From: Selaginella moellendorffii
Taxonomy: Eukaryota; Plantae; Lycopodiophyta
Assembly (NCBI RefSeq): GCF_000143415.4
Contig: NW_003314356.1
Location: 62,001 to 126,000 of the forward strand
DNA: 64,000 nucleotides
Direction: 5' to 3'
Part shown: piece by piece, positions 16,591-60,456 of the stretch
How positions within the stretch are numbered: position 1 is the first letter of the stretch
Layout: every line of letters begins with the position of its first letter
The notes under the pieces: generated by a model
What the model saw: the letters and a program-made list of their open reading frames with translations, nothing else
The model's database searches: none
What the model was told of the DNA's origin: nothing
Made by a program: the position numbers and the translations under genes

Positions 16591-17002
16591 ACATGGAAAG
16601 TAGACATGGACTTCACCATGTTAGACATGGCGGGATTTGACGTGATCTTCGGGATGGATTGGTTCAATCGGACAAGGTAGAAACCTTGTGGTACTAGTGA
16701 ATGCCCAAGGAAGAAGATCCAGGGTGGAGGCCCAAGATCTAAACATAGGGCAATGCAAGGCCAAAGATTCCTGCCTAAACCTGGTGTCCAGGAGAGGACA
16801 ACTCACTAAAGAAACCAAGGCAGCATTTTTGTGCTTACTCTCGGCGAAGAATGACAAAAAGGTGGGAATGAAAGAAGTACCTTTAGTGATCCAATGGGTG
16901 TTGGACCAATTCTAGGATACCATGCCGGAGGAGCTACTGGCAGGGTTGCCCCCAACTTGACTGATAGAACATAAGATTGAGCTGGTCAAGGGTGCTGAGG
17001 AG

Positions 17003-21364: not shown

Positions 21365-23170
21365 TTGTCGGTGCTTTCCAGATTGGCGACCTCCATTTCC
21401 TGGGTGGAGACCTTGGCGTTAGCAATGTCCTGTTGGTGCTACTGTGGTGGAAGGTTTGGACACCGAGGTGCATTCGGGAAACAAGGAGTCGCACGAGTAA
21501 CGGAGGGACCTTGCGCGAATAAGTTAGTGACCCCTCCATCTTTCTTTCGGGAGTATCATCAAGGGGTTCACTCAGCACCGGTTCATCCAGTGTTTACTTT
21601 CCAAGCTCATTTCTATAACAAGAGGTCTCCTATTATTCTCTTCGTGTTGGTTGATACAGGTTTGAGTTTATCTTCTATTGCTCGACCTGTTGCCACACGT
21701 TGTCGTCTACATTTGCATCATGCGGCGGATCCAGTTTTCATTCTTTATGGCAACGGCCGTACACATGCATGTGCACGAGATGAGGCAGACCTGGTTGTGC
21801 GTGTGGGCGATCTCGAGCTTGAGTTGCAGTCATTGCGGGTGGTGCCGAGTCAAGCTTTTGACCTCATTCTTGGTATGGATTGGTTGCAGTGCAATCATGC
21901 CAAGTGTGACTTTGAGGCTTCTCCCCCTTGTCTCATACTTCTTTATATTTCATCCATTCCTTTCACTTCCATACCTCTTCGTCCCTCTACTTCTACCTCT
22001 ACTTCCATTACTTTTGTTCCTCCTCTATTTCCTCCTATGTTTTTATCTTGTTCTACTCTTCCCTTTTCCAATCCTTCCAATGATCTTTGTGTTGCAGCTA
22101 TTGACCGGCTCATGAAGGAGTATTCTGATCTCTTTGAATTTGACCTATCATCTGGGGCCAAGATTGTCACATGTCATCCGATTCCAACCGGGGATGCTCA
22201 TCCAATCAAGATTCTTGTTCGTCATCAGTCACCCAAGGAGATCAAGATTTTATGTGCAAGCGTCAAGGAGATGTTGGAGAAGGGTGTTATTCAGAAGTCG
22301 CGGAGTCCTTGGGCATGTGAACCTCATCTTGTGACAAAGCCTGATAGGAGTATTCGTTTCTGCATTGACTATCGTCCATTAAATGAAGTGACAATCCTGG
22401 ATGTGTACCCTCTTCCTCACACTGCTAATCTCTTGGATTGTCTGGGGCGAAATCGTTGGTTCACCAAGCTAGATTTTGCTTCTGGGTACTGGCAAGTACC
22501 GATAGTTGAAGAAGATATTCCTAAGACTGCTTTTCGTACACCGTTTGGTTTGTACGAGTTTTTGGTGATGCTGTTTGGTTTGAACAATGCTCCAGCAATT
22601 TTCCAGCGGATGATGGACGAGGTTCTTTGTGATATGCCAGAGGTCACTACTGACTTTATTGATGATGTCTTGATTCACTCGGAGGGGATGTGGGAGGAGC
22701 ATATTCGTGATGTGTGTAAAGTGTTGGATCGGCTACGGGATGTTGGTTTAAAGCTGAAGCGGTTGAAGTGTGTGTTTGGGTCCAAGGATACAACTTATCT
22801 TGGGTACCGTATTTCTCGTGAGGGTTTGCAAGTTGATCCTAACAAACTTGTAGCCATTCTAAAGTTCCCTACTCCAAAGTGTGTGAATGATGTGCAGCGC
22901 TTCCTGGGCAATGTTTGGTATCTCGGTCGTTTTGTGGATCATCTTTCTGATCGCACTGCACCATTGCGAGCATTGCTGAAGTCATCAACGTCATCTTTCA
23001 TCTGGTCTTTAGATTGTGAGCGAGCATTTGTGGATCTCAAAGAGCTATTGACGACTCCTCCGGTTTTGGCATATCTTGACTATACTCAACCTTTTATTTT
23101 GCACATAGATGCTTCTAATATTGGTCTTAGAGGTGTATTAATGCAAGAAAGCCCCAGTGTGCTTGGTTAG
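21365..23170 (+). pseudogene. Protease-RT-RNase H of family A copy 1
   Basis: VLVDTG, LDFASGYWQ, FIDDVLIHS and HIDAS motifs. Confidence 0.92.
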
Positions 23171-23326
23171 TGTCATCCCATTACATATATAAGCCATACG
23201 TTACAACCAGTAGAGGTGAACTACTCCACGACAGAGAAGGAGTGTTTAGCGGCAGTTTGGGGTTTCGAGAAACTTCATGCATATCTACATAGTTCTCGGA
23301 CGTTACTTGAAGGTGACCATGTTGCC

Positions 23327-23731
23327 TGTCAAGACCCCCAACAAGATCAAGACTGGAAAATGCTAAAGACAAAGAGAAAAAGCTAGTGAAAACAAAGAAG
23401 AGGCCTTAGACTGGTGTTGATTCAGATTGTGGAGAAATGGAACAAGGCTAACCTATATATACTATAGGTTGATGAAGCTCCACCACTCTTGGATCGAGGA
23501 CGGCCTAAATATAGCTGAGGTCGAGGAGGCGCCACATCAATATCAGGAATGTGGCTCGAGACTCAGGAATCGGGAAGTGTCTTGAGAGTCAGGAATAGGG
23601 AAGTGTCTCGAGAGTCAGGAATGTCTTGAGAGTCAGGAATAGGGAAGTGTCTCGAGAGTCAGGAATGTGGTCTGCAGGTCAGAAATCCGGTGAGAGTCAG
23701 GAATATGGCAAGAATTGGGGGATTCCTGACA
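23327..23731 (-). repeat. 3' LTR of chromovirus
   Basis: TGTCA...TGACA; internal GAGAGTCAGGAAT repeats. Confidence 0.97.
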
Positions 23732-23742
23732 ACACCCCCTCC

Positions 23743-26700
23743 TCAAGAACGAGTGGAACGAGAATGTGAATGAGAACGACGAGGAGGATGAGATGAGCGG
23801 CGAGGGATGGGAGATGGAGAAAAAGAATGAGGACTGGGACGACTAGGATAGCGGCGGTGGAAGTCCTGAACAAGGTCAGGAGAATGAATCAGGTTGTCCG
23901 CAGGTTCCCAAGTGCGTTCTTCAGGCCCATAACCCTTCCAGTCAACCAGATAGTAGAGTTTAGACCGTGAAATCTTGGAATCAAGGATGTCCTGAACCTC
24001 GTACTCAGACCCATCCTCGAGCTGCACTGGTGGAGGTGGAGGAATGACCCGATTGGGAATAGGACTGGGAATATAAGGCTCAAGGAGAGAGGAATGAAAA
24101 ACAGGGTGAATTTGATATGAGGAGGGAAGTGCAAGGCGATAAGTGACAAGATTAATGATGGCAGTGATAGGGAAAGGACCGAGGCGTTTGAAATCAAGTT
24201 TTGGACAGGGCCTGGTGGTGGAGATATTTCGCCTGAGGAGCCAAACTTTATCCCCAATATTGTAAGGGGGACAATCCTGACGATGGACATTGGCAAATGT
24301 TTTGTGAGATTCCTGAGCACGATGGAGGTAGAAGGAGATGGAGTTGTGGATTTTTTGGAGGTTGGAGACAAATGCCTCAGAGCGGGGATTTGAATGAGAG
24401 GATTTGGATGGAGAAGGAAGTGAGAGATTGAATCGGGGATTTCGGCCAGAGTTTGCAAAGAATGGGGAAATTTGAAGAGAGGAGTGAATAGAGTTGTTAT
24501 AGGAGAACTCAGCAAGGGGAAGGATATCGAACCAATTATCCTGATGATAGTTGATGAAACACCTCAAGAATTGTTCCAACGTCTGAATTGTTCGCTCAGA
24601 CTGCCCATCAGTTTGAGGATGATACGCCGAAGAGAGGTTGGCCTTCACTCCAAGCAGCTGCAAAAACCGTTGCCAGAAATGAGAGATGAACTGAGGCCCC
24701 CGATCCGAAACCACATCTGTAGGAATCCCATGAAGTCGGAAAATTTCCCTGAATACCAGTTTTGCCATGTCCTCGCCCGAAAACTCCTTGGTACATGGCA
24801 AGAAGTGTGCCATCTTTGTGAAGCGATCCACCACGACTAAAATGCTGTTGAAGCCTCCAGAACTCGGAAGATCACTCAAGAAATCCATGGAGATGGATTC
24901 CCAAGGACCTGAAGGGACCGGAAGGGAACGAAGCAAACCTGAAGGAAGGTGGTGAGGTACCTTATTTCAGGTGCAAGTGTCACAGGAGGTAACAAAAGCT
25001 TTGATGTAGTCGTCCATGTGAGGCCACCAAAAGTCCCGTGTAACTAGCTCATAGGTTTTCGCAATGCCGAAGTGACCAGCAGTCGGGCTATCGTGGCACG
25101 CCATTAGGACCAACCTTCGAGCATCACCTTCAGGAACGTAAAGCTGCTCCCCACGGTATAATAAGCCATCTAAGAACTCGAACTCGTCAAATCGCCGGCA
25201 GTCGGGAGTCACAGGGTGTCCAGCCTGAAGATGGGGGAAAATGTCGCTGACGAGATCATCGGATTGAAGATCATTTCTGATGGCATCCATCAAGGAGGAG
25301 TCCTGAGGGGCCAGGGAAATTGCCATAACTTGAAGCCGATCAAGACCGAGGATAATTTGATCCTGTTGATCGAAGGCAGGATTACCAAGCCTGAGACTGA
25401 GATAGGAGCGCCTTGAAAGAGCATCAGGAAGGCCTTGAAGCTTTCCAAGTCTGTACTTGATAACAAAGTCAAACCGACTCAGGAATTGTGCCCACCTTGC
25501 TTGACGACGGCTTAAAACTCGAGAAGTGGCAAAGTACTCGAGATTTTTGTGATCCGTCCAGACTGTTGTTTGATGGCTCGCCCCTTCCAAGAAATGGCGC
25601 CACTCTCCAAAGGAATCCACGATGGCAAGGAGCTCGTTGTCGTGGATTTCGTAATTGATCTCCGTAGGCTGGAATTTCCGAGAATGGAAAGCGACCGGAT
25701 GAAGTTCTTGATCCGCTCCAAGTTGAGACAGCACAGCACCGATGGCAAAGTCGGAGGCGTCAGCCTCGATGAAGAAAGGTTGTGAGGAATCAGCATGGAT
25801 CAAAATGGGAGCAGAACTAAAGGCTGCCTTGAGAGTGTCGAAGGCGTGCTGGGCAGCAGTAGACCAAGAGAAGGGAACATCCTTGCGAGTGAGATGCGTG
25901 AGAGGAAGAACAATGTCAGAGTAGTGATCAATGAATTTGCGGTAGAAGTTGGTGAAGCCAAGGAAAACCTGAACGTCCGACATTGATTGTGGAGGCTCCC
26001 ACTCGAGAATAGTCTTGACTTTGGCAGGATCCATCGTGATACCCTCAGGAGTGACAATGTACCCAAGGAACTCCACAGACTGCTGATCGAAGGAACATTT
26101 CTCAAGCTTCGCGTATAGGCCGTGTTCTCGCAGCTTCGCCAGCACCTTGCGTACATGTTCGTCGTGCTCCTCCTGAGTTCTTGAGTAGATGAGGATGTCA
26201 TCGAGGTAGACGATCACCATCTGATCAAGAAACTCCCGAAAGACGTCGTTCGCCATGTGTTGGAAAACTGCTGGAGCATTTGTCAAGCCAAATGGCATGA
26301 CAGTGTACTCGAAGTGGCCATAGCGGGTTCGGAACGCAGTCTTCCATTCATCACCAGGCCGGATCCGGATCAGGTTGTATGCGCCACGGAGGTCAATCTT
26401 GGTGAAGAAGCGGGCACCGCTGAGGGGCAGCGGATAACGGTTCCGAATAGTCACCTTGTTCAAACCTCGGTAATCGATGACTAGCCACAAACTCCCATCC
26501 TTCTTCTTGACAAAGAAAACAAGCGCTCCCACCGGGGACTGCGAATGCTGAATGAACCCTAAGGCAAGGTTCTCATCCACGTACTCTTTGAGGGCCTTAA
26601 GCTCGGACGGGGATAACCCATAGATAGGCCCCCATGGAGGCGACGCTCCTTCCTATAAATCAATGGGACAGTCATAAGGCCGATGAGTAGGCAGTACACT

Positions 26701-27446
26701 AGCTTTTTTCTTGTCAAACACATCCCCAAAATCATGATACTTCTCAGGAAGACTGACAGGAAAAACATGCATAGCAAAAAGGAAAATAGGTTCTTCATGA
26801 AGGAGTTCTTGCATAGTGATTGTGGAGATAGGAGGAGGTGTATGACTAAATGGAATGATGAGACGAGGATACTGTCAAGTGTAAGATGGAAGAGAGGAAA
26901 AAGAAGAGGGTGAAAACTTCGTAGAGTCAGGAACAAAACCCCGATTTGAGTTTAGGGAACTTTTCCTGATTCGGACTCGATGAACAGCAGGGGAAGCCGT
27001 GGGAGATGGTGATGTGGGAGAGATGAGCTGTAAGTCCTTCCAACAAATCTGAGGCTGATGTAGTTGGAACCAAGGAAGACCGAGCACCACAGAGGACTTG
27101 TTGTTGATGATGTTGAAGGCGATATCGGTGACGGTGGACCCAATGTGTACTAGAACGGGCAACGTTTCCCTAAGTCCAGAAGATGGAGACACAAAATGAC
27201 CGCCGATGCCTTCAACCCTCAGATCCCGTATGGTAGGAGAAAGAGGAACGTGAGTTCGGGCAGCAAAGTCCGTGTCCATGAAGTAGGAAGTTGCACCCGA
27301 GTCCAGTAGCGCCAAAGCCTTGAGTCCTGATTGTCCGGTGAAAGAAAGGAGACATGGGACGCAGAAGTTGCGGGAATTGGTGGTGGCTTTGATGAAAGGT
27401 GGTGAGGAGCTTGATAAGGAAGAAAAGTGATTTTTATTCAGGGAGT
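23743..27446 (-). pseudogene. Chromovirus pol: protease, RT, RNase H, integrase, chromodomain (a few stops/frameshifts)
   Basis: LLDSGAT (26875-27315); YLDDILIYS and EADASD (24967-26580); integrase core plus YEVQDILDSK...YLVDWKGYGPEERTWEP chromodomain (23743-24936). Confidence 0.95.
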
Positions 27447-27470
27447 AAGCTCTATTTCGTTAAAGTGGGA
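27447..27470 (+). repeat. Left TIR
   Basis: Exact reverse complement of 40669-40692. Confidence 0.97.
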
Positions 27471-28579
27471 TTTATTCAGTAAAATGGGACTAGGTACAAA
27501 TTTTCAAGTATTTGAAAATGACGTGAAATTATATGTTTTTTGTCCAGGGGCTAGACATATCTGGGGCATGGTGACTAGCGCGGTGACCTTATGTCCAGAC
27601 TGAGTCCATCTAGTTGTATAATAAATCTCATTGTCAAGGTGAACAAGCCGAATCTGAAGCTAAAGAAGAGCGATGGCATGCGCGCACACACTATTTGTTT
27701 GTTCATTGAGCGTGTGGTGAGCTTTCCAAGATGAACATCATTCCTATTAGCCAGACATATAACTTAATGGTGAGAACATTTAGATATTATTCAATGTTAT
27801 CTTTTTCTAACGAATCTAATTGTGAAGGTGTAGCAAGAGGCATTGCTAGTCTGGAGAAGTCATTTAACTCATTTGACCCTTAGTGTATTTTCATGAAACT
27901 AAATAACATTCATATTATTAAGGAATTTCTCTAGTACCTTTTTTTTACGACATAGAGGCTTGCATTTCTTTCAAAGGTGATTTAGTAAAAGGCCTGAGGG
28001 CACATGCCATTCTATTTCTCAGACCGGTATTAAGATATACTAGTGCAAAGGGAAAAAGGTATTTGGTGATCAAGTAAATGGCATGAGGGCACACGCCATT
28101 ATAAGCCTAAGCGCTAGTGGACACCTCCTTTTTGGTACTCTCAGCGGTACTATCATCCTTCTCCGGGTCAGTTGTTTTGCTTTGGATTGTTGTCTCTGAC
28201 GTTATTGGGGCGTTCTCGATAGTTGTTAATGTTGCCGTTTGTTCAGAAAAATGATCACCTGGAGTATAGTACGGGGAGTTTGGAAGACTTATATATTCTA
28301 CATCTTCACCTATCTCCTTCTCCGTCTCCTTTTCTGCCTCACTTACAGATTTTGTGCTTGCCATGAGAACGCTCTTCACCCTAAAATATGGAGTTCGTTG
28401 TGTTATAAAAGGAAACCAACACACACGCTGCAAGGGAATGATGGTACATAAAGCACGTAAGCCCACAATATGGGTTTATGTGCCATTAATATGGGCCACA
28501 CGCCATATTATTAGATTTATGCACGTGTGATTGGTAAATGCATATGTCACATCATCTTTGTTTTACCTCACACACTATA

Positions 28580-31500
28580 TCAAGCCTCCTCTGATTCAGA
28601 TTCGGATTGTTCACCTTGAAATAAAATACATTAGAAACTTTGTAAAGGAATATTAATGAATCTCACCTTGAACCCGAGTTATGAATGCTCTTGCTGCATC
28701 TCTTGCATGGTCTGGCAAGGTGATGGTGGCACTCTGCTTCCGCATCCAACCATGCACAACATTATCCACCGATATGCTCATGCTGGGATCCCTTGGATTC
28801 AGCACCCATCTCTTTTCTAGGCAATCCTTCGTATATCCGGAACTTGGCTTGAACCACTCCACAGTTACATTGAAGGAGTTAGTTTCCGCGTCCTCCTCTG
28901 CATCAGTGATGCAGCGCCCCACCCATATCATTTGTTTTTTATTACTAGGTCTGACAAGCACGACCATTCCTTTGCAGACCTGTACTGGATTGAATGCTGA
29001 ATCCGGCTTCTTGTTCCTCGGCCCACAATAGTGATCCTCAACATCGTTATCTGTCATTGCATTTCCAGAGGACATTGTTCCGCTACTATCTGGTGCTCTG
29101 GGTTCTGGCCAAAAGGACTCTTCCAATTCTTCATATACAACCGGCCCATTTTGGATAGCAGATATAATCTTCTCCCAGTATTCGAGCAAAGGCTTGCACC
29201 TCTGAAAATAGGATTCTCCACCAAACACCAACCCCCTCTTCCAGAAGGCAATATGCTGTCTAATCCCGGCCACTATACTTTCCTGGTCTTTGAGTCCATC
29301 CGGGTGCATCGGCCGTGGGGAACCCTGAGGAATCATAGGTTCCCCAGTTATGGGATCTCTCTTGAAGAGTTCAATGCCGTCCACTGGCAGCCACACTGTG
29401 TCCCATTCTCTCATCTTGTACCTCATCACTAGAGCACCGTCACACATGCTGAAATGAAACTGAAGAGGCTTGGAGTGGCCAATCAGCGTTTCGGATCCAT
29501 CCCTGATGTAGCCTCTTACAAACCCCTTAAAGTCTGGAACCTCTGTCAGAAGTGCAGCTTCAACAGTGCCTTTGATGCAATTTTGGAATTCATCGTAGAG
29601 TTGTGGGAGGGTGAGGACATTGGATCGCCGGAGGGACTCTGCCAGGTGACTGAACATGGCATCGACGTCTTCATGAGTGTGCCCAACCATGAGAAAGCCA
29701 AGTGTAACCGTTTCAAATATGCCTTTGGCAACAAGCATCGCCAAGTACGCGAAGACGTACATGTTTTTGTTCTCACTGCCAGCATTGTCTGTTTGGAGCA
29801 GAAAATGGGGTGGAAGGCCACATCGGCCGCAAGAACTTCCTTGAGATTCTGCTTCGTTTGGATGAGGCTGTGCATTCACCGGGCGACCAGCCTCGTCGGA
29901 ATGGCATGAGGCCTCACGTGATAACCCTACAATCTGACGGCCAACATATTCACTGGGATGGCATGGGGCCCCACGCGATACTGCAAGCCTTTGCTCCTCC
30001 TCCAGCTGAACCCTGTATGGGGTTCGATCGACAAGGGCCTTATGCAAGGGTTGGCCGTTCAGCTTAGTCTGCGCACTTTGCAGAGACCTTAAGTGTTTTG
30101 CTAGGGACGCAATCATCATGTTTGCACCCCCGCCACCCCATAGAGGTACAAAGAAGTTCCCATAGTTCTGGGCACCATGCCCATGAGCGATTATGCCAAA
30201 CAGAGACACAGGCAGCTGCATGGATGAAGAGATTGCCTTGGGGGCAGGATTGAGTCGAGGTAAGCACGTCTTTTTCTGGTCCATTTTGTCGTGGATGATG
30301 CAGAGGTAAGAGTCAGGTCTCTCCATGGAGAGAATCCTGTTATGATAATATGCAGTCCTGCAGCTTCTCTGCTCGATGTTGTGGTCGAGCCGCCTTCTAA
30401 CCAACGTCTCTCGCTCTTGAGCGCTGCAAGAATTCTTCGACAAAGCCATTTTGATAGCAGTGCACTCGTCACACTTTGAAAAGCTGGAGTACTTTCCTAT
30501 ACTCACATCCCTGAACCTGTTGCTCCACAATCTACTAAATCTAGATTGGCTCAGCTTCCTGTAGCCATTACTCTGGAGTTCCCGATTCACATCTTCCAAT
30601 ATGGCCCCCTTGGTATACATGGAAGGGAGAACTCGTTGGGTGTCTCGTGTTCCATCTTCCAAGAGGCGGGTTTTATGTGGTTGCTGCTCGTTACATGTCT
30701 CGACAAACCTCTTGAAGATTGCCTCTCCATATACAACATGACCCCTGGTTTTGTGCGTACCGTCGTTCCCATGGACTGCCTGTTGAACCCTTTGTTCCTC
30801 GAACTCAGTTTTGATTCTGTAGAATGTGCTTCGAGGGACTCCATAAATGATTCTCCATGCCTTCATGCAGACCAAACCCCTCTGGAAGACCATGCCCCCC
30901 ACCTGATGTTCTGAAGCATCAACAGATGACCGTAATGCCTCATACACAAAATTGCGAGCTGCCTTCCAGGACAATGTCTTGTATCTTGCTCTCTCCTCTT
31001 CAATAGCATCCCAATCAGCATGTTGACAGCACCTCCTCTTGCAACAAGCAACTGTCGAGACCATTCGAACCTCCATCGCCATTTTCTGCCTTTTCGGTTC
31101 GTTGCTCAGATCCCTTTGGCTGCGCTTTAGGAAGGTGTACTTTCTTTTCCCATGAAGAGATGTTCTGTCATCAGTTGTAGTGGTGTTTGATTGTGAATCC
31201 TTCACATTCTCAAACACTAAGTGCCTCAATTTCCACCGCACAATGCTTCCAATAGTCAGACTGTTTTCTTCTGTGTCAACAACCTCTAAAATCGCAACTC
31301 CAATATCATCCCAGCCCAATTCTTGATTAGCAACCGCATCTCTTGGATCGACAACTGTGGCTAAGCCCTCAGCTACCACCTCCCCCTCGGGGTTGTTTAG
31401 AAACACTTTTGCCTGAATCCATGTAGCACGGTTCTTAAGATCCACGGAGGGAACATGCGTCGCACTTGCGCTGTCCCCAACATCTGCTTTCTTCTGAAGA

Positions 31501-31721
31501 TTTTTCAAGGCAACAACAACATTTACCCCGACGACCATCTCTCCTCGTTCAATAGCGACCACATTCCCATCGAAGACAGTCTCTACTGATACAGCAGCAT
31601 TGCCTTCCCCAAGCCTTTCACAGTGTATAATAAAGTTTTGATCCATAGACACAAGGGTCCCTTTTGCAACTCTCTTCCCACCATTCAAAATGTAAACCTT
31701 TTCCCCAACCCTGAAGGCCAT
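28580..31721 (-). CDS. Sola-like DDD transposase (DUF7869-type), ~1,030 aa; predicted exons 31721-28667 and 28614-28580
   Basis: Uninterrupted 1022-aa ORF with CCxxxC, VCMKAW...YGV, HGN, CDEC...H, HDKMDQ, LQTDNAGSENKN and FLMVGHTHEDVD. A 52-nt GT-AG intron (28666-28615) gives a last exon GEQSESESEEA*; without splicing the ORF stops at 28653. Confidence 0.88.
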
Positions 31722-32586
31722 TCTGAAAGTGCAGAAAAGAAGTTAAGACCATACAAAAAATGATTGGAGAATGGCCTAAATCATAACATACCAAACAACC
31801 TCAATAGCATGAGGCCACATGCCATTATTCAAACATGCTATTGACACCCACGTGAAATTTCGCATTCACAAAATTGGCATGAGGCCTCATGCCATCTTGA
31901 TATACACACAGCTGCAGGCAAGTAAAAACATACATGACAATACGCTAGCCATGAAATTGCAAGGGCCCAAGATGGCATGTGGCCTCATGCCATTTCTAAA
32001 TGTGGTCCTAAGCCATTCCATGGTGAACATACCAGGAAGCACAAGTGCCGAATATCAAGAGGAAGCGGTAGCCACACCAAAGACAGTGCCGCTCGCAACA
32101 CCGCAACTACTCGTAGCGCCGCTCGCAACACCGCAACTGCTCGTAGCGCCGCTCGCACAAACTGCCACTCGCATAAACTGCCGCTCGCAATGGCGCTCGC
32201 AATGCCGCAACCGCTCGTAGACGCATAAACCACAGCCCACAACGCCGCTTACACAAGCAGCGCTCACTGCGCTCAGCGGAACCAAGAACACGGCGCACAA
32301 AAATGATAGACCTAGGAATGAGTTCGAGAATTCAAAAATAACACACGCTTGAACGTCACATCAAATCCTCTGACAAACCAGATCTTATGATTCCTCTGAC
32401 AAATTTCAAACTGAGTAGCTTCTAGACTTTGCTGTCGGAGGTTGAACTTTGTCACATCATGTCCTTGCCTCGATCCAGCTGTGCCATGTCAGTGATTCGA
32501 ACTTTGCCATGCCATGTCAGCGATCCGCGCCAAGATTATTCGCCGTGTAAAGGAATAATTACGCTGTGTGTGTACGTCCATTTATG

Positions 32587-33960
32587 GCAATATAAGGCCA
32601 CACGCCATTCAAAGAATAATGCTCGACATAAGGCCACACGCCATTCAAAGAATAATGCTAGTCGAGCATTTTTTGGTGCATTTTTGGGTTCAAAATTGCA
32701 TGAGCCCACACGCTATAAAGTTTACCTGTACCAAAAATAGAAACAGCTTTATTTACTTGGGAATTTAAGTGGTTGAGGCATTTTTAAACTTACAAACACA
32801 TGCCCTACTTACATTCCTTTGGTTGCCTAAAATTCAAAAATATTATAAACCTTTCTTTTTGCATTTTCAATGTTTTCAATTATGGTTTTTGATTTTCGTA
32901 GGACCAGCCTAGTAATCTATTTGCATCCCGTCATGTTTATAGCTAGCTTTCGTTCGTCCCCTTCGCTAGCCTGAGATACATCTGCTCGGCATCTGCCTCT
33001 TACAGCATTTGCCCAGAAAGGGCATCTTTCTTCACGCAGCATTTGCCACATGTTTAGGGTTTAGGGTTTAGGGTTTAGGGTTTAACAATTCAGTAGCTTG
33101 ATAAACATGCAAATACAGAACTTGATGCAAAATCCTTTGATATGTCACAATGCCCCTAGGACCATAAACACATTTCAATAGAGAGGGTCCTTTCATTTCA
33201 TAACTCCTTACGTAGATCTTGGTGAAACCAGAGTTAGTGAAGTTAGTTTCTTGTGATCCCGCATCTGATTGTGATGTCCCTTTGCAGTTTCGATGGAAAG
33301 GTCAATGCACACCAAACTGTGAAATCTTGGAGCAAAATAACGGTCGGATCTATGGCAAATGCCCCTGAAACATTGTAAGGCTCGTGTGGTCTCATGTGGT
33401 GTCCGATTGAGATGCTTCTTTGCAGGGTCATCAAGAAAGACATTGTATACCATTCTGTAAAATCTAGTTGCGATCTAACGGTTGGATCTCCAGAAAACTC
33501 AAAAAAATCTCGCGCGTGTCAGAATATCCTAGGAATATACTCCTATGTGCCCCTGAAAATGGCATGCGGCCCCACGCCATTCAAGAGATAATGCCAGATG
33601 ACGCCGAGAATTTTTTGGTGCATTTTTTGGGTTCAAAATTGCATGAGCCCACACGCTATAAAGTTTATCTTTGCCAAATAGAGAAAAGTTTATCTGTGTC
33701 ATGTGAGGTAGTTACAGTCCTTTGTGCTCGGCATCTGCCTCTTGCAGCATTTGCACTGAAAGGGAATTTTTCTCCATTCAGCATTTGGCCCTGAAAATGG
33801 CATGCGCCCACACGCCATTCAAGGAATAATGCCACAGGACGCCTGGATTTTTGGGTTTAAAATGTTTAGGGTTTTTTGGGTTTTTTCAAAATATTTTGGG
33901 TCCAACGTTTTTTGGGTTTCTTTGGTTCAAAATTGCATGAGCCCACACGCTATAATATTG
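32587..33960 (+). repeat. Three copies of a ~100-150-bp unit in the divergent promoter region, each with a palindrome pair
   Basis: CACGCCATTCAA..ATAATGC...TTCAAAATTGCATGAGCCCACACGCTATAA at ~32623-32720, ~33559-33665 and ~33797-33956. Confidence 0.85.
33053..33084 (+). repeat. Interstitial plant telomere repeat (TTTAGGG)4 inside the DNA transposon
   Basis: Four perfect TTTAGGG units plus TTTA. Confidence 0.95.
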
Positions 33961-34685
33961 ATTTGAGAGAAAAATAGAAACAGATAGAATTTCTTTATTT
34001 AGCTGAACATCTGCCATTTTTGGAAATACAAGATGCTTTGGAATATCCAATCATGCATGGTATAAATATAGCGAGGGTATTAAATGATATCCCAATCATG
34101 ATCTTTCTTTTGGATTTCGCGTGCATGCAGTCCGAGGAATGATGACGTTGCGGATTTCTTTTGGATTTTGCGTGCTTGCATGCGCGCGGCAATCCAGAAA
34201 TTAATGGTGGCGCCCAAGTCCGAGGAATGATGACGTGGCGGGATTACCAACCGTTGTGACATTTCGCGCGTGTGAGGTTAGGTTTTGCATTTTGCTTTGT
34301 ACTCGCGCTCGCATCACACTCGCGCTCCCACTCGCATCACACTCGCGCTCCCGCTCGCATCGCGCTCCCACTCGCGATCACGCTCACTTCTCTACAGGTT
34401 TCTCGTGTGCATCGGCATCCACTCGCGCTTGCATCACACTCGCGCTCGCATCGCGCTCGTGTGCATCGGCGTCCACTTCAAGACACACCCAGTTTGTAAC
34501 TTCGCCGCCAACTCCGCCGCCCACTCCACCACCCACACGCAGCCCACTTGGCGTCCCGGGAGATTTCAGCACCACTCTCCAACTGTAAATGGCAGAGTAG
34601 CCTTGCTGCTACGATCCGCTGCACACACAGTGCACATTCGCCAGCGAGTCCGGCCTCGATTGTCACGGCCTCCATTCGGCTTCAA

Positions 34686-37600
34686 ATGGTAAGTCTTTTA
34701 GACGAAGTAGAAAATGGCATGAGGCCACATGCCATTCAGTAGCAACATTGGCATGCACCGATTGGGCTCTCGAGTGCAGTCCGGTTACAGATGGCGTGTA
34801 GCCTCACGCCATCTTAGGATGCAGCCTCAAGACATCTGATGCAGTGGTGAATGGCGTGTGGCCTCACGTTATTTCCAGCTGCTAGCTTTTCATCTGTTAG
34901 CTCTAATTGTTGTGCATTTTTGAACAGGCGAGGAATTGCGTTCTTCTTCCAGCCACTGTCAATGTGGATGCAGAGAAGGGGGAGGAGCTCACCAGTTGGA
35001 CTTTCGGGATGGAAGGCGAGGATTTGATGCTGTACAACACAGATGGTGGGAGAAAAGAATGCATGGGGATCCTCATCCAAGTGACAGACACTCCATGCAG
35101 TTCCATGCAAGAATATGGACTGGCACTTGTGGTAGAGACAGCGTCCGCCTTCAAGATCCACCTTGCACATCCTAGCGGCTTCCCGGAGGGGGGCAGCGGC
35201 TATGAGGAATTCCTAGAGGGAGCTAGGGAGAGGTTGTCCAGGAGGCCCACAATTTCAAAGACGCTGCGGGTCTATGAAGATCACATGGAATCCACGGACC
35301 TCACCTACGGCGATGTTCAAAAACTATATTCCAACATTGAGCCGTTGAGAGTGCCTCCAGTTTGCGAAGCGAAGGGGAAGGGGGTCGATCTGGAAACTAC
35401 CCCGAAGCAGAAAAGGGTGGTCAAGCTCAAGCCGACGTCCGACTCTGCTGCTCCAAAAAAGAAGCTACTCGGTGATGCCATTGCCTCGGGTTCGAACACT
35501 ACACCCACCAAAAAGAAGAGCCGCAAAGAGCAGAAAGAGCAAGAAGAGGCAGCAAAAATCGTCGCAGATAATAGTACTTGTTACTATTCCAACAAAGTAT
35601 ATACAATCGACGTGAGCCGTATCGAGATCCAAAGCAAATACAACCACAGGCTAGTATCTGATGAGTGGGTGGAGAAACTGAAGCAGAAGATGCTGGCAAG
35701 TCCAGTAACACCCGACATCGCAGACGTGATCCCCTACTACCGAACAATGAAGGGCGAGACGAGGTTTCCAGACTTGATCAATAGGAAGGTGTTGGACGAT
35801 CAGAACATCCGGTTCTATGCCGTCTCCGGGCAGCATTCTAGCTTGGCGATGCAACAGATAGTTGTGGATATTATGGTGGGCGAGGAGGTGAAGAAAGTCT
35901 TCAAGACAAGAGTTGTCCGCCTGATAAAAGGCAACTCGCCCCTCCGATCTATCATATACATCTCCCACGCGCAGAATGTCAAGCAAGAAACGTGCTACAA
36001 ATTGGGTCTGCACGAGACATTGGCACGAACACGGAAGCTCTGGGTTCAACTGAAGAAGCCACAAAAACCAGGACAAGGACGTGCACTAGCAACTAGCGCC
36101 TGGCAGGTAAGCCTCGTTGCATGTGGCATAGCATGTGGCCTCACGCCATTTCCATTGCAGGAATTCTCGAGTCTTCTCTCGAAAACACTGGGGGTCAATG
36201 ACACACTCAGCATCCATAACATTCTACTCGCGACAAAAGTTGTTTTTGACAAATGGGTAGATGTGCTAAGGAGGTACCATGACGGGGAGTTGCTAAACTC
36301 AATGGGTGTGGAGGACGGCCGGAAGCCCAATGATTTGAAGCTCAACGCCTTGCGTTTCTCGCGGTCTCTAGACGACGACGACCTTCTGACAGTGGCTAAT
36401 GCTCTTCTACTTGGTGAGGTAGTCTTCAACAAGACCAAAATGACTCCCGGCCATATTGTGACATACGAGGACTTGTGCACGACTCTGAGAGCTCGTGCGC
36501 TATTGAAGGATTGGATCTTCGAGCAAGTGGCCGTGGCGAGGGTGAGCATCGACACCACGCAAGAGATGATGGAAGAGCTGGACTTGTCAAATGAAGACAT
36601 CGACGAGAACGTGAAGGGGGCCCCCAAGTTCATCGATCTGCTGCGGGATGCCACGAAAAGTAAAGCTGAGAAGTTGGATCAGTATCCAAATTTCATTAAG
36701 AGGGATGTCGACCGCCGGCTTCAGAAACAGCTCGACCCCGCAGCAGAGGCCTATCGAGAACCTTACCGGGTATACGTGAATTCGGATGAGGATCAAAGGT
36801 GGAGGAGCATCGTTTCCCGCGGAGATGAGCAGGTCAAGAACATCTTTTGTGTGATGGACTTCACAAACGAGGAGATCACTCATGCAGACGAAGTCAGCTC
36901 CATCATTGACTTAATGGTGGGACTTGCGGAGGTGGAATCTTCAGTCCACTATATGATCTACGACTCCGAATCCTATCACAAGTTCTGGAAGGCCTTGAAC
37001 GAGGTGAAGGCTCGGTTGAAAGGCAAGGAGATGCGGGAGATCCATGGGATAATGGCTAAGAAGAAGATACCGACGAATGTCCGCATCTTCACAGTCGCCC
37101 TTGTTATTGGTCTTGCAGCAGAGTGGGACTGGAGTGACTTCCCAGCTTCGTTCAACAAAGCCGATCGAATTGATCTGAGGGAGGTCAATTTACCCGTGCC
37201 TGAGGAACTGAAGACGGCTATGGAGCTTTCGAATCCAAAGAAAGCTCCAGGTGCAGCATGGGAAATGCTCAGCTGGGTCTTCAACGCAATAGCGGGTGAC
37301 TCCAAGGGCAAATGCGTTGTCGAGTACAACTGCGGCGGACTATTCTTTCGAGCCGCACTACTCAAGGGTGTCCCGTGTGTTGCGGTGACAAACTCCATTG
37401 AAGAGGTGACTTCAATGGAGCATATAATTACAGTTGCCAAAGAAAAACAGTATCTTCTCTACGAACCTGGTGAGTACGCACTTTAAGTTTAAATGTTATC
37501 TCACAAGCTCTGTATGCAGGAGCGTGGCCACCCCCAGATGCTGAAACGGCGTTAACAGCTACTGATGTTAGGCCGAGGTCACAACCTGCACAAGGTAAGG

Positions 37601-40261
37601 TCACGTGAGGCCTCACGCCATTTTGATTATAGATCGTTGTGAATATTCAGACACGAGGACTGAAAAGCGCACTGGTGGCGCGTCGAAGAAGGACAAACAG
37701 ACAAGCAATAGGAAAAAAGGAGGTACAAATTATATTTGCAATGGCGTGTGGTCTCATGCCATTCCTTGCAGGAGACACTTCTTCAAAGGCAAAACAAGCA
37801 AGCACCAGCCAAGCTCAAATTGACAGTGGTCATAAAAAGCGAAAGCACGTTGGACAGTCGTCGGGATCAGAGGCGTTTGATTCGAAAAGGAAGAAGGGCA
37901 ACGAAAAGATGATAGGTAATGCCTCGCGGTTATGGCGTGTGTGCTCATGCCATTCATTGCAGATCAAGGGCTGAGTGAAAGGAGCCAGTCACCACCTTCT
38001 AACTCAGATTCCTATGGCGGACTCCCCTTCCCCAATCTCAATGGAGAGGTACAATGGATGAGGGATGCTTTTCAAGTCAGGGCCACGTTTTTCTCATCTC
38101 GTCGTCTTCGAAGGGTGCAAGAACGTGCAGAAACCATGTTAAGACAGTCGGGTGAGGATACGGTCCTAGGTCACGCACTAAAACAGGCTATGGATGTCTT
38201 GTATTTTGAGATGGAGACTTGGCCAGATGATTTTTCCAAGATGGTCCTGGAAAAACAAGCAATCCAGCCTGAGCAGCCTATGGAAGAAATGCAAGAGGGG
38301 GATGAGGAGCCAGAGAAAGATAATGAGCAGGAAGAGCAGAAGGACGAAGAGGAGGACGAAGAAGAGGAGGACGAAGAGGACTTGGATGGTCCTCACAATG
38401 GTGACGATCACAATAACGACGATGACGATGATGACGATGATGGCCAGCCTGAGGTGGCCAAAGAGCAGCGGAGGAAGGTCATACAAGACAAACCATCAGG
38501 TAAATAATAGTACATCCATTCCTAACCTTTTACCATTTCTAACATTGTCCATGTAGGTCGCAGAAGAAATGGTAAGTAGAGATTATTCAGTTGAATTAAG
38601 ATACAAACTCTAGCCTTTAGTGTCGAGGAAGGATAGTGCCAAGCAAGGGTCGAAACGTATGTCCAATCCTTCAGAATCAGCAGTGCGCCCAAGTGATATC
38701 GGTCCTAGTTCCTCAATAGCAGTTGATGGTAAATACAGTATAGTCGATTCAATGTGCTAATGAGTTTGTTTTTAGTAGCACGGGAGGATACCATCTCAAT
38801 CGAAGGGAGATATTTGGACATGCATATGGATCCGCCAGTGGACTCTACTTGCCTACAAGAGTCATCAGAGCTGGTGGAGGCTACTATCCATATCAACGCC
38901 AAGCAAGCTGACCACGCTCCACTTGATGCTGCCCATACCACTGAGTCAATCTTGTCCACGTATCCAACTGACGGTGACCAGGCGCCATTGGACCCGCATG
39001 AGGCCGCCCCAGCCGCCGAGCCGGTCGTATCCTCATTTCCAACGTGTGCCCAATCGTCTGACTACGCGCCGTTGGAACCTCCCTACACCGCCCCTGCTGC
39101 CTGTTCGGTCATGTCCACTTTGCCAACGGAGGCACCAGCTGAAATGGCGTGTGATCACACGCCATCGGAACCACCCCATGCCACTGTTGAGCCAGTTGTA
39201 CCAGAGTCTACAGCTGAAATGGCATGTGCCCACACGCCATCGGATGCAATTGACCCCACATTGCAGAGGAGAGTATTTCCGCCCTTCACGTTTCCTCGAC
39301 CAAAACCCTCTGAACGACCATCGGGAGCACCATTCGCTAATATTGTAGATGGTAAAATTGACTTGTACCATTTTTTATGCTAACGCATTTCATTTCAGAG
39401 TCACGGCGAAAGTACTGTATCGTTTTTGATCTGAACGGTGTCCTTTTCTCCCATGAGCGTGGCTCGTCCTCGAATGTCACTGCACCCTCCAAAGCCTGCG
39501 GTCGCAAGTTGGTCAAAAGAGACAGATTCACATTAATCACACGGGAGAAACTGCGGGATCTAATAATGACCATGCGACACTTAAAACAGAGGGCCGGGTT
39601 CAATTTGCAATTGGGAGTTTGGACATCCATGATGCGCCACAATGCATTAACATTGCTACAGATGATGCACGATCAGACGCGAGTAATATTACCATTTGAC
39701 TTTCTCCTAACGCAGGAGGATTGCTTGACTATGGTCCATGTGAGGGGTAGCAAGCCCATCTTTGTCAAGGCAGAGGCTGTAGTGATGAACCGGACTGCTA
39801 GGTCAAGTGAAATCCTCATCATCGATGACTCGCCGATTAAAACTGCAGCGAACACGCACACATATGCAGTGCACCCCATCTCTTGCAGTATGGAAACTAG
39901 GGAGAAGAAACCGTATGTTCTGGGGGACCTTGCAAAACGGCTTGAAGCGATGGTGATAGAGAACCGGCCAGTCCAGGAGGTGGCTGCAGAAATTAACCAA
40001 ATGGCAGATGGAACGGTATATCAGAAGCCATTTGATCGGACAGACACCAGTCATCATTTATGGCATGTATATTGTCTAGCCAAGCACTATCCGCATCTCC
40101 ATAATCTGCTCAACCGGATGGGTTCTTCGACCACTGAACATGAGCGTGGACGTATTAGAGAAGAGATGGCATTACTATTGGGTTTAAATCCTGATAGTGT
40201 GGAGAGTGATGAAATTCCAAGATTATTGTATAGGCGTTGGAGGCAAAAAATAACAGTCTGA
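34686..40261 (+). CDS. Predicted 11-exon accessory protein (~1,626 aa): ParB/Srx-like domain + degenerate N6/N4-MTase-like fold + basic/acidic linkers + FCP1-like HAD phosphatase
   Basis: Exons 34686-34688, 34928-36106, 36161-37469, 37520-37594, 37651-37722, 37772-37915, 37963-38499, 38557-38571, 38621-38728, 38776-39351, 39399-40261. All introns GT-AG (239 nt, then 47-57 nt); phases compatible; 4,881 nt with no internal stop. The first exon and two acceptors (37632 vs 37650, 38775 vs 38778) are uncertain. Confidence 0.78.
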
Positions 40262-40668
40262 GATGGCATGTATTTATTTAAAAATGTAACTTATTATGGC
40301 ATGGGGTTCCATGCCATTGTATTAATATTAAAAGACAATTCTTTGAGAGGATTTGCATTATACTAGAAGTGTTACAGCATGTTATTGGAAGTCTGCGAAG
40401 TTGTTTTATTAATAAGGGGAAAGTAAAGATTGAATGGGGACTTGGGCTCCACCTAGACTCGGAGCAACTGAGCCAATATTAAAAGGATGGAAAGAAATTG
40501 GACAACGATGACAAGGAGAAGAGAGAGGTGAAGCAGTGAGAAGTGATTGAGTAGACATTTCCTTGTTTAAAATAAAATGGCATGTGCCTCAATGCAGTTG
40601 AATTTTGTTATATTTATATACTATATAAAGGTTTGGAAACCTTATTTTACAAGTGGGATAATGACAAT

Positions 40669-40692
40669 TCCCACTTTAACGAAATAGAGCTT
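40669..40692 (-). repeat. Right TIR
   Basis: Exact reverse complement of 27447-27470. Confidence 0.97.
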
Positions 40693-40694
40693 GA

Positions 40695-40739
40695 GTCCAA
40701 ACAGACAGCTCCTACTCTATTTGGACAGGGTCGTTTCCC
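40695..40739 (-). promoter_or_regulatory. -1 ribosomal frameshift signal (G GGA AAC + downstream stem-loop)
   Basis: Heptamer 40739-40733 in the gag frame, 6-nt spacer, stem GTCCAAATAG/CTGTTTGGAC. The -1 frame is open into the protease once the DNA transposon is removed. Confidence 0.8.
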
Positions 40740-41689
40740 GACTGCAACAGAGGTGGACTTTGAGGCAAAGTGAACTCGAGCAATCGGGGAGGCTTCTTGG
40801 GACACACAGCTGCTTTGTGATTAGGATCAGCACAGTAGAGGCAAAGATTATGAGATATTCGACGTTGCTTCTCAGCAGGACTCAACTTCCCTCTAATGAG
40901 TCAGGGAGTACCAAAAATATTCATCGGGACCGGAGCAGTAGGTTCAGGACTATGCCCCGAAGACTCAAGCTGGGATTCCTGAGTCTGGGACGGAAAAACA
41001 GCGGCGCAACGACTTTCCTGACGACGTTCAAAGAGACGATTGTCACATCGAACAGCTTTGTTGATGGCGTCCGACAGGTCCTTGGGATCCTCCATGGTGA
41101 GCAACAAATCCTTGACACCGTTGTTGAGGCCGAAACGAAATTGGTCAATCAAGGCCCGCTCATCCCACTGAGTGTCCAAGGCAAGGAGTTGGAACTCTGC
41201 AGCGTAGATCGAGGCAGGACAAGACCCCTGAGAGAGACGTCTCATCTTTGTGGTAGCAGCCCGAACCCGATCCGTCTCGCCAAAACATGCTTCAAGCTTC
41301 TCTTTGAACAATTGAAGATCCATCAGCTCCGAAACCACGACCCCTTTCATGCTCTTCTCCAGAAGAGGAGAAAACCATGACAAAGCTGCACCCTCGAGCA
41401 ACGTCCCAATCGCGCCGATTTGAGACTCGGGAGTGGGGTACCGCCGATGTTGAAGTGCAAAGATCAGCTCCATTTGGTTCAAAAATCCACGAAGCTCCGA
41501 ACGCTTGCCTGAAAATTTCGCCGGGAAACTCACCTTCGGTTCAGGAACTTTGCTGGATCCTTGAGCCGAAAGTGAAGCAAGCTCCTGCTGCATGCGAAGA
41601 AGGGTCGCCTTCAGCTCGGTATTCTCAGACTGGATTTTTGCAAGGACTTCGGCAAAGAAATCAGGATGGCTTGGAGACTCCATTGGCAA
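40715..41689 (-). pseudogene. Chromovirus gag (one premature TGA at 40901-40903; CLYC...H...C knuckle downstream)
   Basis: PAKFSG...LLEGAALSW...QFRFGL gag motifs; the frame continues past the TGA to CLYCADPNHKAAVC and a GGGAAAC slippery site. Confidence 0.9.
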
Positions 41690-41762
41690 GAAGAAAGAAA
41701 AGAAAGGGGGAAAAAGACAAAGGCAATCAAAGAATCAAAGCGAGTTAAAAGAAAAGCAAAAA

Positions 41763-41778
41763 CCACAATCTGAATCAA
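41763..41778 (-). promoter_or_regulatory. Self-priming primer-binding site
   Basis: 16 nt starting 2 nt inside the 5' LTR boundary; exactly complementary to LTR 41871-41886; no TGG tRNA-type PBS. Confidence 0.85.
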
Positions 41779-41780
41779 AC

Positions 41781-42185
41781 TGTCAAGACCCCCAACAAGA
41801 TCAAGACTGGAAAATGCTAAAGACAAAGAGAAAAAGCTAGTGAAAACAAAGAAGAGGCCTTAGACTGGTGTTGATTCAGATTGTGGAGAAATGGAACAAG
41901 GCTAACCTTTATATACTATAGGTTGATGAAGCTCCACCACTCTTGGATCGAGGATGGCCTAAATATAGCTGAGGTCGAGGAGGCGCCACATCAATATCAG
42001 GAATGTGGCTCGAGACTCAAGAATCGGGAAGTGTCTTGAGAGTCAGGAATAGGGAAGTGTCTCGAGAGTCAGGAATGTCTTGAGAGTCAGGAATAGGGAA
42101 GTGTCTCGAGAGTCAGGAATGTGGTCTGCAGGTCAGGAATCCGGCGAGAGTCAGGAATATGGCAAGAATTGGGGGATTCCTGACA
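41781..42185 (-). repeat. 5' LTR of chromovirus
   Basis: TGTCA...TGACA; TATATAAA on the minus strand at 41908-41915. Confidence 0.97.
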
Positions 42186-42619
42186 TTGCCGTTACTTCAT
42201 TATTGAAGCAGAAGAACTTGGTTAGTTGTACTGTGCAGTGGGCTTTGAAGCTTCAGATATATGATTTTGATGTTGTTCATCGCTCAGGGAGTTCTATGGC
42301 TAATGCTGATGCCCTTTCTTGAACTCCCCTTCCTTCTCCACTCTCTTCTCATATTTCTGATGAGCTTGTTGTTCCAGCATCTGTGGATTTTCTAAACGAA
42401 GATTCTGTGCCATCGGCAGTTGCTATACTTGATGTTCAATGTTCACAAAGCGCAGAGCAAGATTTACCTTCTCTTGATGAGGTTTGCGAGGCTCAAAAGA
42501 TTGAGCCGTGGATTCGAAGGCTTCGAGATGTGTTTGAGAATCCTACATCACTTGCTGATGACTTGCCTTTCCGGCATTTACATTCTTAATATCACCTTGA
42601 AGATGGCCTTCTTTATTTT

Positions 42620-59039: not shown

Positions 59040-60456
59040 AAGCTCTATTTCATTAAAGTGGGATTTATTCAGTAAAATGGGACTAGGTACAAATTTTCAA
59101 GTATTTGAAAATGACGTGGAATTATATGTTTTTTGTCCAGGGGCTAGACATATCTGGGGCATGGTGACTAGCGCGGTGACTTTGTGTCCAGACTGAGTCC
59201 ATCTTGTTGTATAATAAATCTCATTGTCAAGGTGAACAAGCCGAATCTGAAGCTAAAGAAGAGCGATGGCATGCGCGCACACACTATTTGTTTGTTCATT
59301 GAGTGTGTGGTGAGCTTTCCAAGATGAACGTCATTCCTATTAGCCAAACATATAACTTAATGGTGAGAACATTTAGATATTATTCAATGTTATCTTTTTC
59401 TAACGAATCTAATTGTGAAGGTGTAGCAAGAGGCATTGCTAGTCTGGAGAAGTCATTTAACTCATTTTGACCCTTAGTGTATTTTCATGAAACTAAATAA
59501 CATTCATATTATTAAGGAATTTCTCTAGTACCTTTTTTTTACGACATAGAGGCTTGCATTTCTTTCAAAGGTGATTTAGTAAAAGGCCTGAGGGCACATG
59601 CCATTCTATTTCTCAGACCGGTATTAAGATATACTAGTGCAAAGGGAAAAAGGTATTTGGTGATCAAGTAAATGGCATGAGGGCACACGCCATTATAAAC
59701 CTAAGCGCTAGTGGACACCTCCTTTTTGGTACTCTCAGCGGTACTATAATCCTTCTCCGGGTCAGTTGTTTTGCTTTGGATTGTTGTCTCTGACGTTACT
59801 GGGGCGTTCTCGATAGTTGTTAATGTTGCCGTTTGTTCAGAAAAATGATCACCTGGAGTATAGTACGGGGAGTTTGGAAGACTTATATATTCTAAATCTT
59901 CACCTATCTCCTTCTCCGTCTCCTTTTCTGCCTCACTTACAGATTTTGTGCTTGCCATGAGAACGCTCTTCACCCTAAAATATGGAGTTCGTTGTGTTAT
60001 AAAAGGAAACCAGCACACACGCTGCAAGGGAATGATGGTACATAAAGCACGTAAGCCCACAATATGGGTTTATGTGCCATTAATATGGGCCACACGCCAT
60101 ATTATTAGATTTATGCACGTGTGATTGGTAAATGCATATGTCACATCATCTTTGTTTTACCTCACACACTATATCAGGCCTAATGAACCATATCACATGT
60201 GCGCACATGCTATATATATGGAGAAGTATTATGCAAGGATAGAAAAATTCAATGCATGATTGTGGAGAGCAATGGCATGAAGCCACATGCTAAATAACAT
60301 TTTAGAGAAAGAATTAAAATAAAAACATGCAAACAGTACTGAGTGGACCAAGACTTAGAAGTGCACAATTGAATGAGGTATTTCTAATAAATATTTCACT
60401 CACCTCATATAGGAATGGCTACCACTCTCAAATGGCATATCGCCTCATGCCATCAC
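59040..60456. mobile_element. Left end of a second Sola-like element copy, interrupted by a family C LTR element
   Basis: 59040-60180 is nearly identical to 27447-28586 including the TIR (1 mismatch). 60181-60456 differs but has further palindromes (60191, 60272, 60432). Left flank GTTA is the candidate TSD. Confidence 0.92.

Follow-up and report, generated by a model that had tools for sequence, protein, structure and literature searches.

A palindrome-rich transposon of Selaginella moellendorffii, likely Sola1, carries a second gene predicted to encode a ParB-like, methyltransferase-like and FCP1-like fusion protein

We analysed a 64,000-nucleotide stretch of the Selaginella moellendorffii genome, hereafter the window (assembly GCF_000143415.4, contig NW_003314356.1, positions 62,001 to 126,000 of the forward strand), which holds a complete DNA transposon bounded by terminal inverted repeats (TIRs) and a target-site duplication (TSD). 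Besides its transposase, this element has a second, accessory gene on the opposite strand, whose predicted exons join into one open reading frame (ORF) for a protein of 1,625 amino acids (aa) with ParB-like, beta-class N6/N4-methyltransferase (MTase)-like and NIF/FCP1-like HAD domains, and numerous copies of a 22-bp palindrome are dispersed through it. In window coordinates, with exon lengths in nucleotides (nt), the locus reads as follows.

27447..40692, 13,246 bp: complete TIR DNA transposon, likely Sola1, delimited by its TIRs and TSD
27447..27469, plus strand: left TIR, 23 bp
40670..40692, minus strand: right TIR, 23 bp, perfect complement of the left TIR
27443..27446 (left copy) and 40693..40696 (right copy), plus strand: TSD GAGT, 4 bp
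28653..31721, minus strand: transposase ORF, DUF7869, uninterrupted, 1,022 aa, head-to-head with the accessory gene
34686..40261, plus strand: accessory gene, second gene of the transposon, 11 predicted exons, 1,625 aa
34686..34688, plus strand: exon 1, ATG only (3 nt), the least secure part of the model
34928..36106, plus strand: exon 2, N-terminal domain of unknown fold, basic linker and ParB/Srx-like domain (about 35582-36106; SGQH at 35825)
36161..37469, plus strand: exon 3, helical region, then beta-class N6/N4-MTase-like domain (about 36761-37468)
37520..39351, plus strand: exons 4-10, low-complexity linker with basic, acidic and proline-rich parts
37520-37594, 37651-37722, 37772-37915 and 37963-38499, plus strand: exons 4, 5, 6 and 7
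38557-38571 (15-nt micro-exon), 38621-38728 and 38779-39351, plus strand: exons 8, 9 and 10
39399..40261, plus strand: exon 11, NIF/FCP1-like HAD domain (about 39401-39898; DLNGV motif I) and C-terminal tail
27673..40598: 24 dispersed copies of the 22-bp palindrome ATGGCRTG-N6-CAYGCCAT

The 11 exons sum to 4,878 nt, that is 1,625 codons and a stop with no internal stop, and the length of about 1,626 aa given in the initial annotation, which had read the locus as a single spliced gene, includes that stop. The ten GT-AG introns that it described are present (239, 54, 50, 56, 49, 47, 57, 49, 50 and 47 nt for introns 1-10, hence nine of 47-57 nt and one of 239 nt), with phases 0, 0 and then eight times 1 in a row, and so is the 15-nt micro-exon; its six plus-strand ORFs became seven on counting stop-to-stop ORFs of at least 100 aa, five of them in the frame of the model. 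Introns 7-10 contain 30-32% GC against about 48-50% regionally, nine of the ten introns have branch-like CTNAY words at 15-36 nt from the acceptor, and a second in-frame site (38775), 3 nt upstream, could replace acceptor 9. Intron 2 (54 nt) is stop-free, so that the sequence alone does not demand its removal; across its junction the S. moellendorffii RefSeq protein XP_024528744.1 reads WQ then EF exactly, while the unspliced homolog ORFs P0030, P0031 and P0034 terminate at WKV or WKVG and P0033 and P0040 start just after, so that this intron is conserved in distant homologs.

The splice model was examined with a frame-blind rule, in which a donor had to read G/GTAAG, GTAAA, GTAAT, GTGAG or GTACA and the first AG at least 45 nt downstream had to be YAG and lie within 60 nt; composed after the model was known, this rule is not a fully blind test. 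It passed ten of 14 plus-strand donors, exactly the ten of the model, and one of eight on the minus strand. Six of the eight exons from 4 to 11 are open in one frame only, and random entry frames stay open with p = 9e-4, in agreement with the earlier claim that such a chain of phase-compatible junctions is unlikely by chance. In other copies of the element, four of five coding indel events were in frame and stop-free (+15, +12, +3 and +9; the +12 falls in the 75-nt exon 4 and the +3, at acceptor 9, was read by hand), the fifth being a +1 in a contig of depth 2.4, and two of four non-coding indels were multiples of three. We consider it very probable that splicing removes all ten introns to give a single mRNA. 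The gene is probably intact as one unit, as initially proposed: the spliced frame is open, and a liverwort protein described below has the same three-domain order.

The three domain calls of the initial annotation all held, each by its own route. Sequence searches of Pfam, PHROGs, NCBIfam and the PDB gave no direct match for the ParB and MTase parts, which were compared by structure using an AlphaFold model built from 24 sequences (mean pLDDT 52, a modest value, and mostly 70-88 across the ParB-like core). The first 11 Foldseek rows for the ParB/Srx part were Noc, ParB, PadC and KorB (best E 5.6e-4), and VIA returned PadC (Z 9.3, root-mean-square deviation [rmsd] 3.2, 99 aligned), KorB (Z 8.9, rmsd 2.8, 94 aligned) and pNOB8 ParB (Z 8.2, rmsd 5.0), the last aligning over model residues 224-526; a helical region follows the ParB-like core. 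Atlas gave DUF3723 for this part (0.97), a domain that is mentioned in excerpts of fungal Starship papers. A ParB/Srx fold of the N-terminal part is thus supported by the predicted structure. By eye, the N-terminal domain resembled the domain repeated at the N-terminus of the transposase, but profile comparison did not support this (best score -4.1, without a shuffle control).

Support for a beta-class MTase fold is weaker and likewise model-based. VIA matched ORF residues 616-850 to M1.HpyAVI (Z 7.2, rmsd 4.8, 151 aligned), MboIIA (7.1), CcrM (6.8) and RsrI (6.3), scores equal to those of other Rossmann-like folds, the MTase alignments being among the longest; Atlas gave N6_N4_Mtase weakly (0.81), and the liverwort homolog has a Pfam match to this family. 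The permuted order is kept, with a degenerate motif IV, DFTN, before a motif I-like EYNCGG. Motif IV of beta-class MTases reads (D/N/S)PP(Y/F). Here it is DFTN at aa 627, and the four homolog groups covering it read DLRR, DSAN, DATT and DLTH, with PPY absent in all. Because the PPY is missing here and in the homologs that cover the motif, the MTase-like domain probably does not methylate DNA and may instead be a non-catalytic DNA-binding or scaffold module. The last exon matches Pfam NIF (PF03031) at 5e-6, with 26.7-28 bits against a cut-off of 21.8, and its HAD motifs II (WTS) and IV (IDDSP) are present.

A HMMER search of 1.84 billion proteins gave 14 matches, of which 11 were kept and three (P0029, P0032 and P0039) dropped as spurious by inspection; the named homologs belong to one lycophyte and two liverworts, which together with the introns of about 50 nt points to a seed-free land plant. 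Riccia sorocarpa R1sor_025532 (KAL3675584.1, UniRef A0ABD3GAX4, P0056; 1,064 aa) aligned by blastp to model aa 150-513 (E 2e-16, 23%), and Pfam found N6_N4_Mtase in it at 5.8e-4, below the Pfam cut-off, and NIF at 1.9e-5, the latter match beginning at profile position 36, past motif I. Its order, ParB-like / N6_N4-MTase / NIF, is that of the Selaginella accessory protein, so that the fusion is supported independently of the splice model. The Riccia protein and S. moellendorffii SELMODRAFT_409495 / XP_024528744.1 are homologs at 23-28% identity, but these records are automatic annotations only. A word-seeded search with the 859-aa ORF against proteins of 472-1504 aa and of 30-471 aa gave no match, nor did a phage tblastn.

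The palindrome was the second distinctive property of the element. Its 24 copies (20 of them non-coding) fall in introns 1, 2, 4, 5 and 6 (seven), exon 10 (two), the transposase (two) and other non-coding DNA (13); six more lie in or next to a partial second copy of the element, and the other 49 kb held none with up to 3 mismatches allowed, against a mean of 0.27 and a maximum of 3 in 100 Markov sequences. Introns 2, 5 and 6 each have a palindrome that stops 9-11 nt short of the end of the intron and contributes the branch-like CTCAY. These three introns (36107-36160, 37723-37771 and 37916-37962) are alike over their final 31 nt, 5 and 6 being 90% identical, which suggests that they may have been made or spread together with the palindrome. 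Among 20 relative transposase loci examined, five had their own, different palindrome (controls 0-1), of 17-24 bp in the four loci listed here; the fifth, L017, has six copies in an array 9 kb from its transposase that may be unrelated.

L012:48-2939: relative transposase contig with its own palindrome, 10 copies
L001:641-1725: relative transposase contig with its own palindrome, 7 copies
L011:559-4492: relative transposase contig with its own palindrome, 6 copies
L004:630-1577: relative transposase contig with its own palindrome, 4 copies

The transposase matches Pfam DUF7869 at 1.3e-41, and HDKMD, DN and GHTHED motifs, which may fit the acidic catalytic triad of Sola1, are conserved across 10 homologs. 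Bao and colleagues reportedly described in 2009 an AWWT target preference for Sola1. The sole complete target site here, GAGT, is unlike AWWT (one site only), and Ectocarpus Sola1 is also given with a target bias other than AWWT (PMC12477816). The TIRs, 4-bp TSD and AA...TT termini agree with Sola1-1_Ec32, for which a TSD of 4 and Sola1-1_PPa as top blastp match are given (PMC12477816); Sola1 is listed in Physcomitrella (PMC9033089), and Sola had no Pfam models (PMC5751038). The element is therefore likely to be a Sola1, an assignment made by comparison of TIRs, TSD and termini. It is inserted between gag and protease of a Ty3 element with long terminal repeats (LTRs).

23328..42186, minus strand: host Ty3 chromodomain LTR retrotransposon, split by the transposon (LTRs 23328-23732 and 41782-42186)

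The two LTRs of this host differ at 6 of 405 sites (1.5%), and the transposon insertion is therefore younger still; contigs of other copies, from other runs, stop at 40692, and the empty site is present in runs X2 and X4. The 13.2-kb transposon is young.

Bacterial ParB and KorB bind palindromic, dispersed parS/OB sites. By analogy, we lean slightly towards the view that the spliced 1,625-aa second gene is a self-targeting regulator of its transposon, comparable to VANC or KorB. In this proposal the ParB-like domain and helical region would bind the 22-bp palindromes of the element as a dimer, and family-specific recognition of the predicted sites is, on balance, the expected outcome. The MTase-like domain would serve as a non-catalytic DNA-binding or scaffold module, and the long acidic linker would tether the HAD domain. 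The latter would act on a nuclear phosphoprotein, most simply the C-terminal domain (CTD) of RNA polymerase II (Pol II), at the divergent promoter and gene body, and this phosphatase-like action would keep the element expressible (anti-silencing); such a pro-expression role of the tethered domain is a tentative suggestion, which we hold with some doubt. Broader still, and unlikely in its full form, is a scheme for Sola1 elements of seed-free land plants, a sequence-specific self-regulation system derived from a bacterial partition protein: a reader with the ParB fold would co-evolve with its family-specific, parS-like palindrome and bring a CTD-phosphatase-like domain, once captured, to the chromatin of its own element. 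This would be an independent counterpart of VANDAL/VANC, working through Pol II phosphorylation rather than DNA methylation, with sites in its own introns whose CTCAY half doubles as a branch point.

Several results weigh against the self-targeting reading, beginning with the modest confidence of the structural model. The CTP-binding motif of ParB is GxxR. The accessory protein shares the fold of the N-terminal nucleotide-binding domain of bacterial ParB, Noc, KorB and PadC, but the arginine is replaced (SGQHS at aa 301; DGQHT in P0031), with S or T there in all aligned homologs covering the site, so that CTP clamp-sliding cannot be assumed. Motif I of FCP1/SCP phosphatases is DxDx(T/V), and the HAD motif I here, DLNGV at aa 1349, keeps the nucleophile Asp and has Asn in place of the second Asp; a DLNG-type NIF subgroup exists in plants and fungi. 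The ParB and MTase changes are common to the homologs and thus characterise the family; they do not reflect decay of the present copy. Since each of the three domains has changes in its key catalytic motifs, the names FCP1 phosphatase and MTase denote families and not demonstrated activities. The NIF domains of the accessory and Riccia proteins gave no significant alignment (E 0.37), and the NIF tail may have been captured twice, or the Riccia fusion may come from annotation. The four S. moellendorffii homolog records all stop just behind the MTase-like domain and have no NIF tail; they also lack most of the ParB part and therefore look partial. In the flanks of the 80 relative transposase loci kept out of 219, loci that are short or decayed, no accessory homolog was significant (best E 0.047-0.2), and the palindrome and a ParB-like gene are thus linked in this element only.

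Transcription and divergence data weigh in the same direction. In three raw RNA runs, of which about 12% each was read, 193, 118 and 254 reads per run fell on the element, nearly all of them rRNA on one 40-nt stretch, and no spliced read or contig was seen in these runs or in contigs of other copies; contigs X1 and X12 retain introns, and no contig joint coincides with an intron. No junction read was found, and splicing is therefore inferred. At donor 1 the frame-blind rule yields a 51-nt intron with an immediate stop instead of the 239-nt intron, and the 3-nt exon 1 is therefore the least secure. No clear purifying signal emerged among near-identical copies, where 5 of 20 and 12 of 30 differences were synonymous and 22% would be expected if transitions were not favoured; the counts come from 40 of 44 and 40 of 69 difference rows, nine non-coding rows and one indel row having been set aside in the latter test. 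At about 1% divergence, the ratio of non-synonymous to synonymous rates (dN/dS) between copies is uninformative. Contig X12 (96% alike) has 26 unrelated letters joined inside intron 1 at 34694, and is possibly a truncated or chimeric copy.

Two of the alternatives concern the protein itself. If intron 3 were retained, translation would end at the stop at 37484-37486, giving a ParB and MTase product of about 835 aa, with the linker and NIF part on a separate or alternative transcript; the end of all four S. moellendorffii records after the MTase-like domain, the two domains alone described for the Ectocarpus protein in the available text of PMC12477816 and the missing junction reads are as this would have it. 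Against it, the frame-blind rule accepts donor 37470 and acceptor 37519, a branch-like CTCAC being present at -17, exon 4, which holds the +12 in-frame indel, can be read through in no frame but the joining one, and the Riccia model is fused whereas the Selaginella records look partial; we regard two products as improbable. Still less probable is an active MTase-like domain writing N4-methylcytosine (4mC) or N6-methyladenine on the element, as has been suggested for the algal proteins: the beta-class order and fold are kept, an Asp ends the motif IV strand and a glycine-rich loop resembles motif I, but the PPY/F is missing in the accessory protein and in the four homolog groups (DFTN versus DLRR, DSAN, DATT and DLTH), whereas the active 4mC enzymes of Marchantia keep TSPPY (bioRxiv 2021.02.12.428880).

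The other two concern what the palindromes do. A KorB-like autorepressor would bind them to limit the transposase, its HAD domain dampening Pol II or being inactive. The best fold matches include KorB (Z 8.9, rmsd 2.8, 94 aligned), the palindromes lie in the shared promoter region as well as in introns, the element is near-silent in the three RNA runs, and SCP-type CTD phosphatases do take part in gene silencing. Our data, however, do not separate repression from activation, host methylation accounts equally well for the silence, and the published parallels lean towards anti-silencing, VANC alone having been tested (bioRxiv 2025.02.11.637652 and PMC5735166), so we judge repression distinctly unlikely. 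The palindromes could also be transposase-binding or synapsis sites, the accessory protein being a transposition co-factor (TnpA-like or target-choosing) or unrelated. Palindrome arrays flank relative transposases where a second gene is unseen, and subterminal repeats are bound by transposition proteins in CACTA and hAT elements. Two-fold symmetric sites, however, suit a ParB-type dimer. The palindromes are also not clustered at the ends but lie mostly between the genes and in the accessory introns, as VANC sites do (PMC5735166), and we give this explanation a low probability. The self-targeting regulator thus remains our preferred reading.

Other features of the element and its surroundings were recorded.

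34582..34621, plus strand: piece of the 3' end of the large-subunit (LSU) rRNA, 40 nt
59040..60181, plus strand: partial second copy of the transposon, left end only, 1,142 bp, 98.7% identical

The LSU piece matches the LSU rRNA read in the RNA runs at 39 of 40 letters and stands in sense orientation 65 nt upstream of the accessory-gene ATG; more than 100 reads per run are stacked there, loose-ended on either side, Rfam matches LSU weakly (E = 6, model 3338-3373), and the piece is a captured rRNA hairpin. An Rfam scan across the element found no structured RNA family. Four TTTAGGG telomere-type units lie in its intergenic part (33053-33080), and GC-rich short tandem arrays of CTCGC-like units (32080-32250 and 34301-34467) lie one upstream of each divergent gene, the array at 34301-34467 varying in length among copies. 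The partial copy is followed by about 270 bp of differing sequence with three more palindromes (region 59040-60453), cut by another Ty3 element, and no matching right end was found for it. Elsewhere in the window, several nested, partly decayed Ty3 copies, 82-90% mutually identical, occupy 10692-23320 and 42192-64000, and a minus-strand run of long ORFs (112-449 aa) at 2901-9439, of which four were scanned without a Pfam match, is an unexplained gene or element.

VANDALs, whose VANC protein is a functional parallel in plants, are Mutator-like. In Arabidopsis, VANC binds family-specific motifs in introns and intergenic DNA (PMC5735166), and the palindromes of the present element are likewise short family-specific motifs, enriched in its intronic, intergenic and terminal non-coding parts and differing by family. 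The available text does not describe VANC as ParB-like, its motifs are 8-9 bp same-orientation repeats, and binding and demethylation are demonstrated for it, whereas binding here is a prediction. The initial annotation had called the domain combination unusual for transposon cargo, but it is not without precedent: ParB with MTase is already published for Ectocarpus Sola1-1 (PMC12477816). A published land-plant form with the phosphatase tail was not found. Sola1-1_Ec32 is similarly a large TIR element with a 4-bp TSD and AA...TT termini, with an accessory gene on the strand opposite the transposase that combines ParB-like and N4/N6-MTase domains and for which self-binding is proposed. It differs in size (21.5 kb versus 13.2 kb here), in its TIRs (282 bp and imperfect versus 23 bp and perfect), in its protein (1,104 aa versus 1,625 aa with linker and NIF/HAD) and in an MTase predicted to methylate, whereas motif IV is degenerate here.

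PAG2/PAG3 of Bostrychia Plavaka (bioRxiv 2025.02.11.637652) also join a ParB-like domain to an effector within a DNA transposon, and arrays of inverted repeats have been put forward as their binding sites; the host is however EnSpm/Plavaka, the effector is a 2-oxoglutarate (2OG) oxygenase, another gene encodes the MTase, and the repeats are in tandem beside the gene instead of dispersed through introns. The word phosphatase is absent from the available main text of that preprint. Several eukaryotic N6A-MTases have been traced to phage ParB-terminase loci (PMC4738411). Among the literature matches listed, no land-plant Sola1 accessory gene or ParB-MTase-FCP1 fusion appeared; Repbase and supplements may already mention a second gene of moss Sola1.

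These comparisons indicate that a phosphatase-like domain has been added to a helper gene known from algal transposons, and they extend the ParB-MTase type to liverwort and lycophyte homologs, in which the methylase is apparently dead. With the NIF addition, the catalytic motifs lost across the family and the palindromes dispersed in introns, the self-binding idea already in print can be tested directly, and the element offers for this a full-length copy that is young, both genes open, a sharply defined candidate site of 22 bp that the flanks lack, and relatives with different sites for swaps. If binding were confirmed, the accessory protein would provide a natural module for targeting specific DNA sites in studies of plant chromatin.

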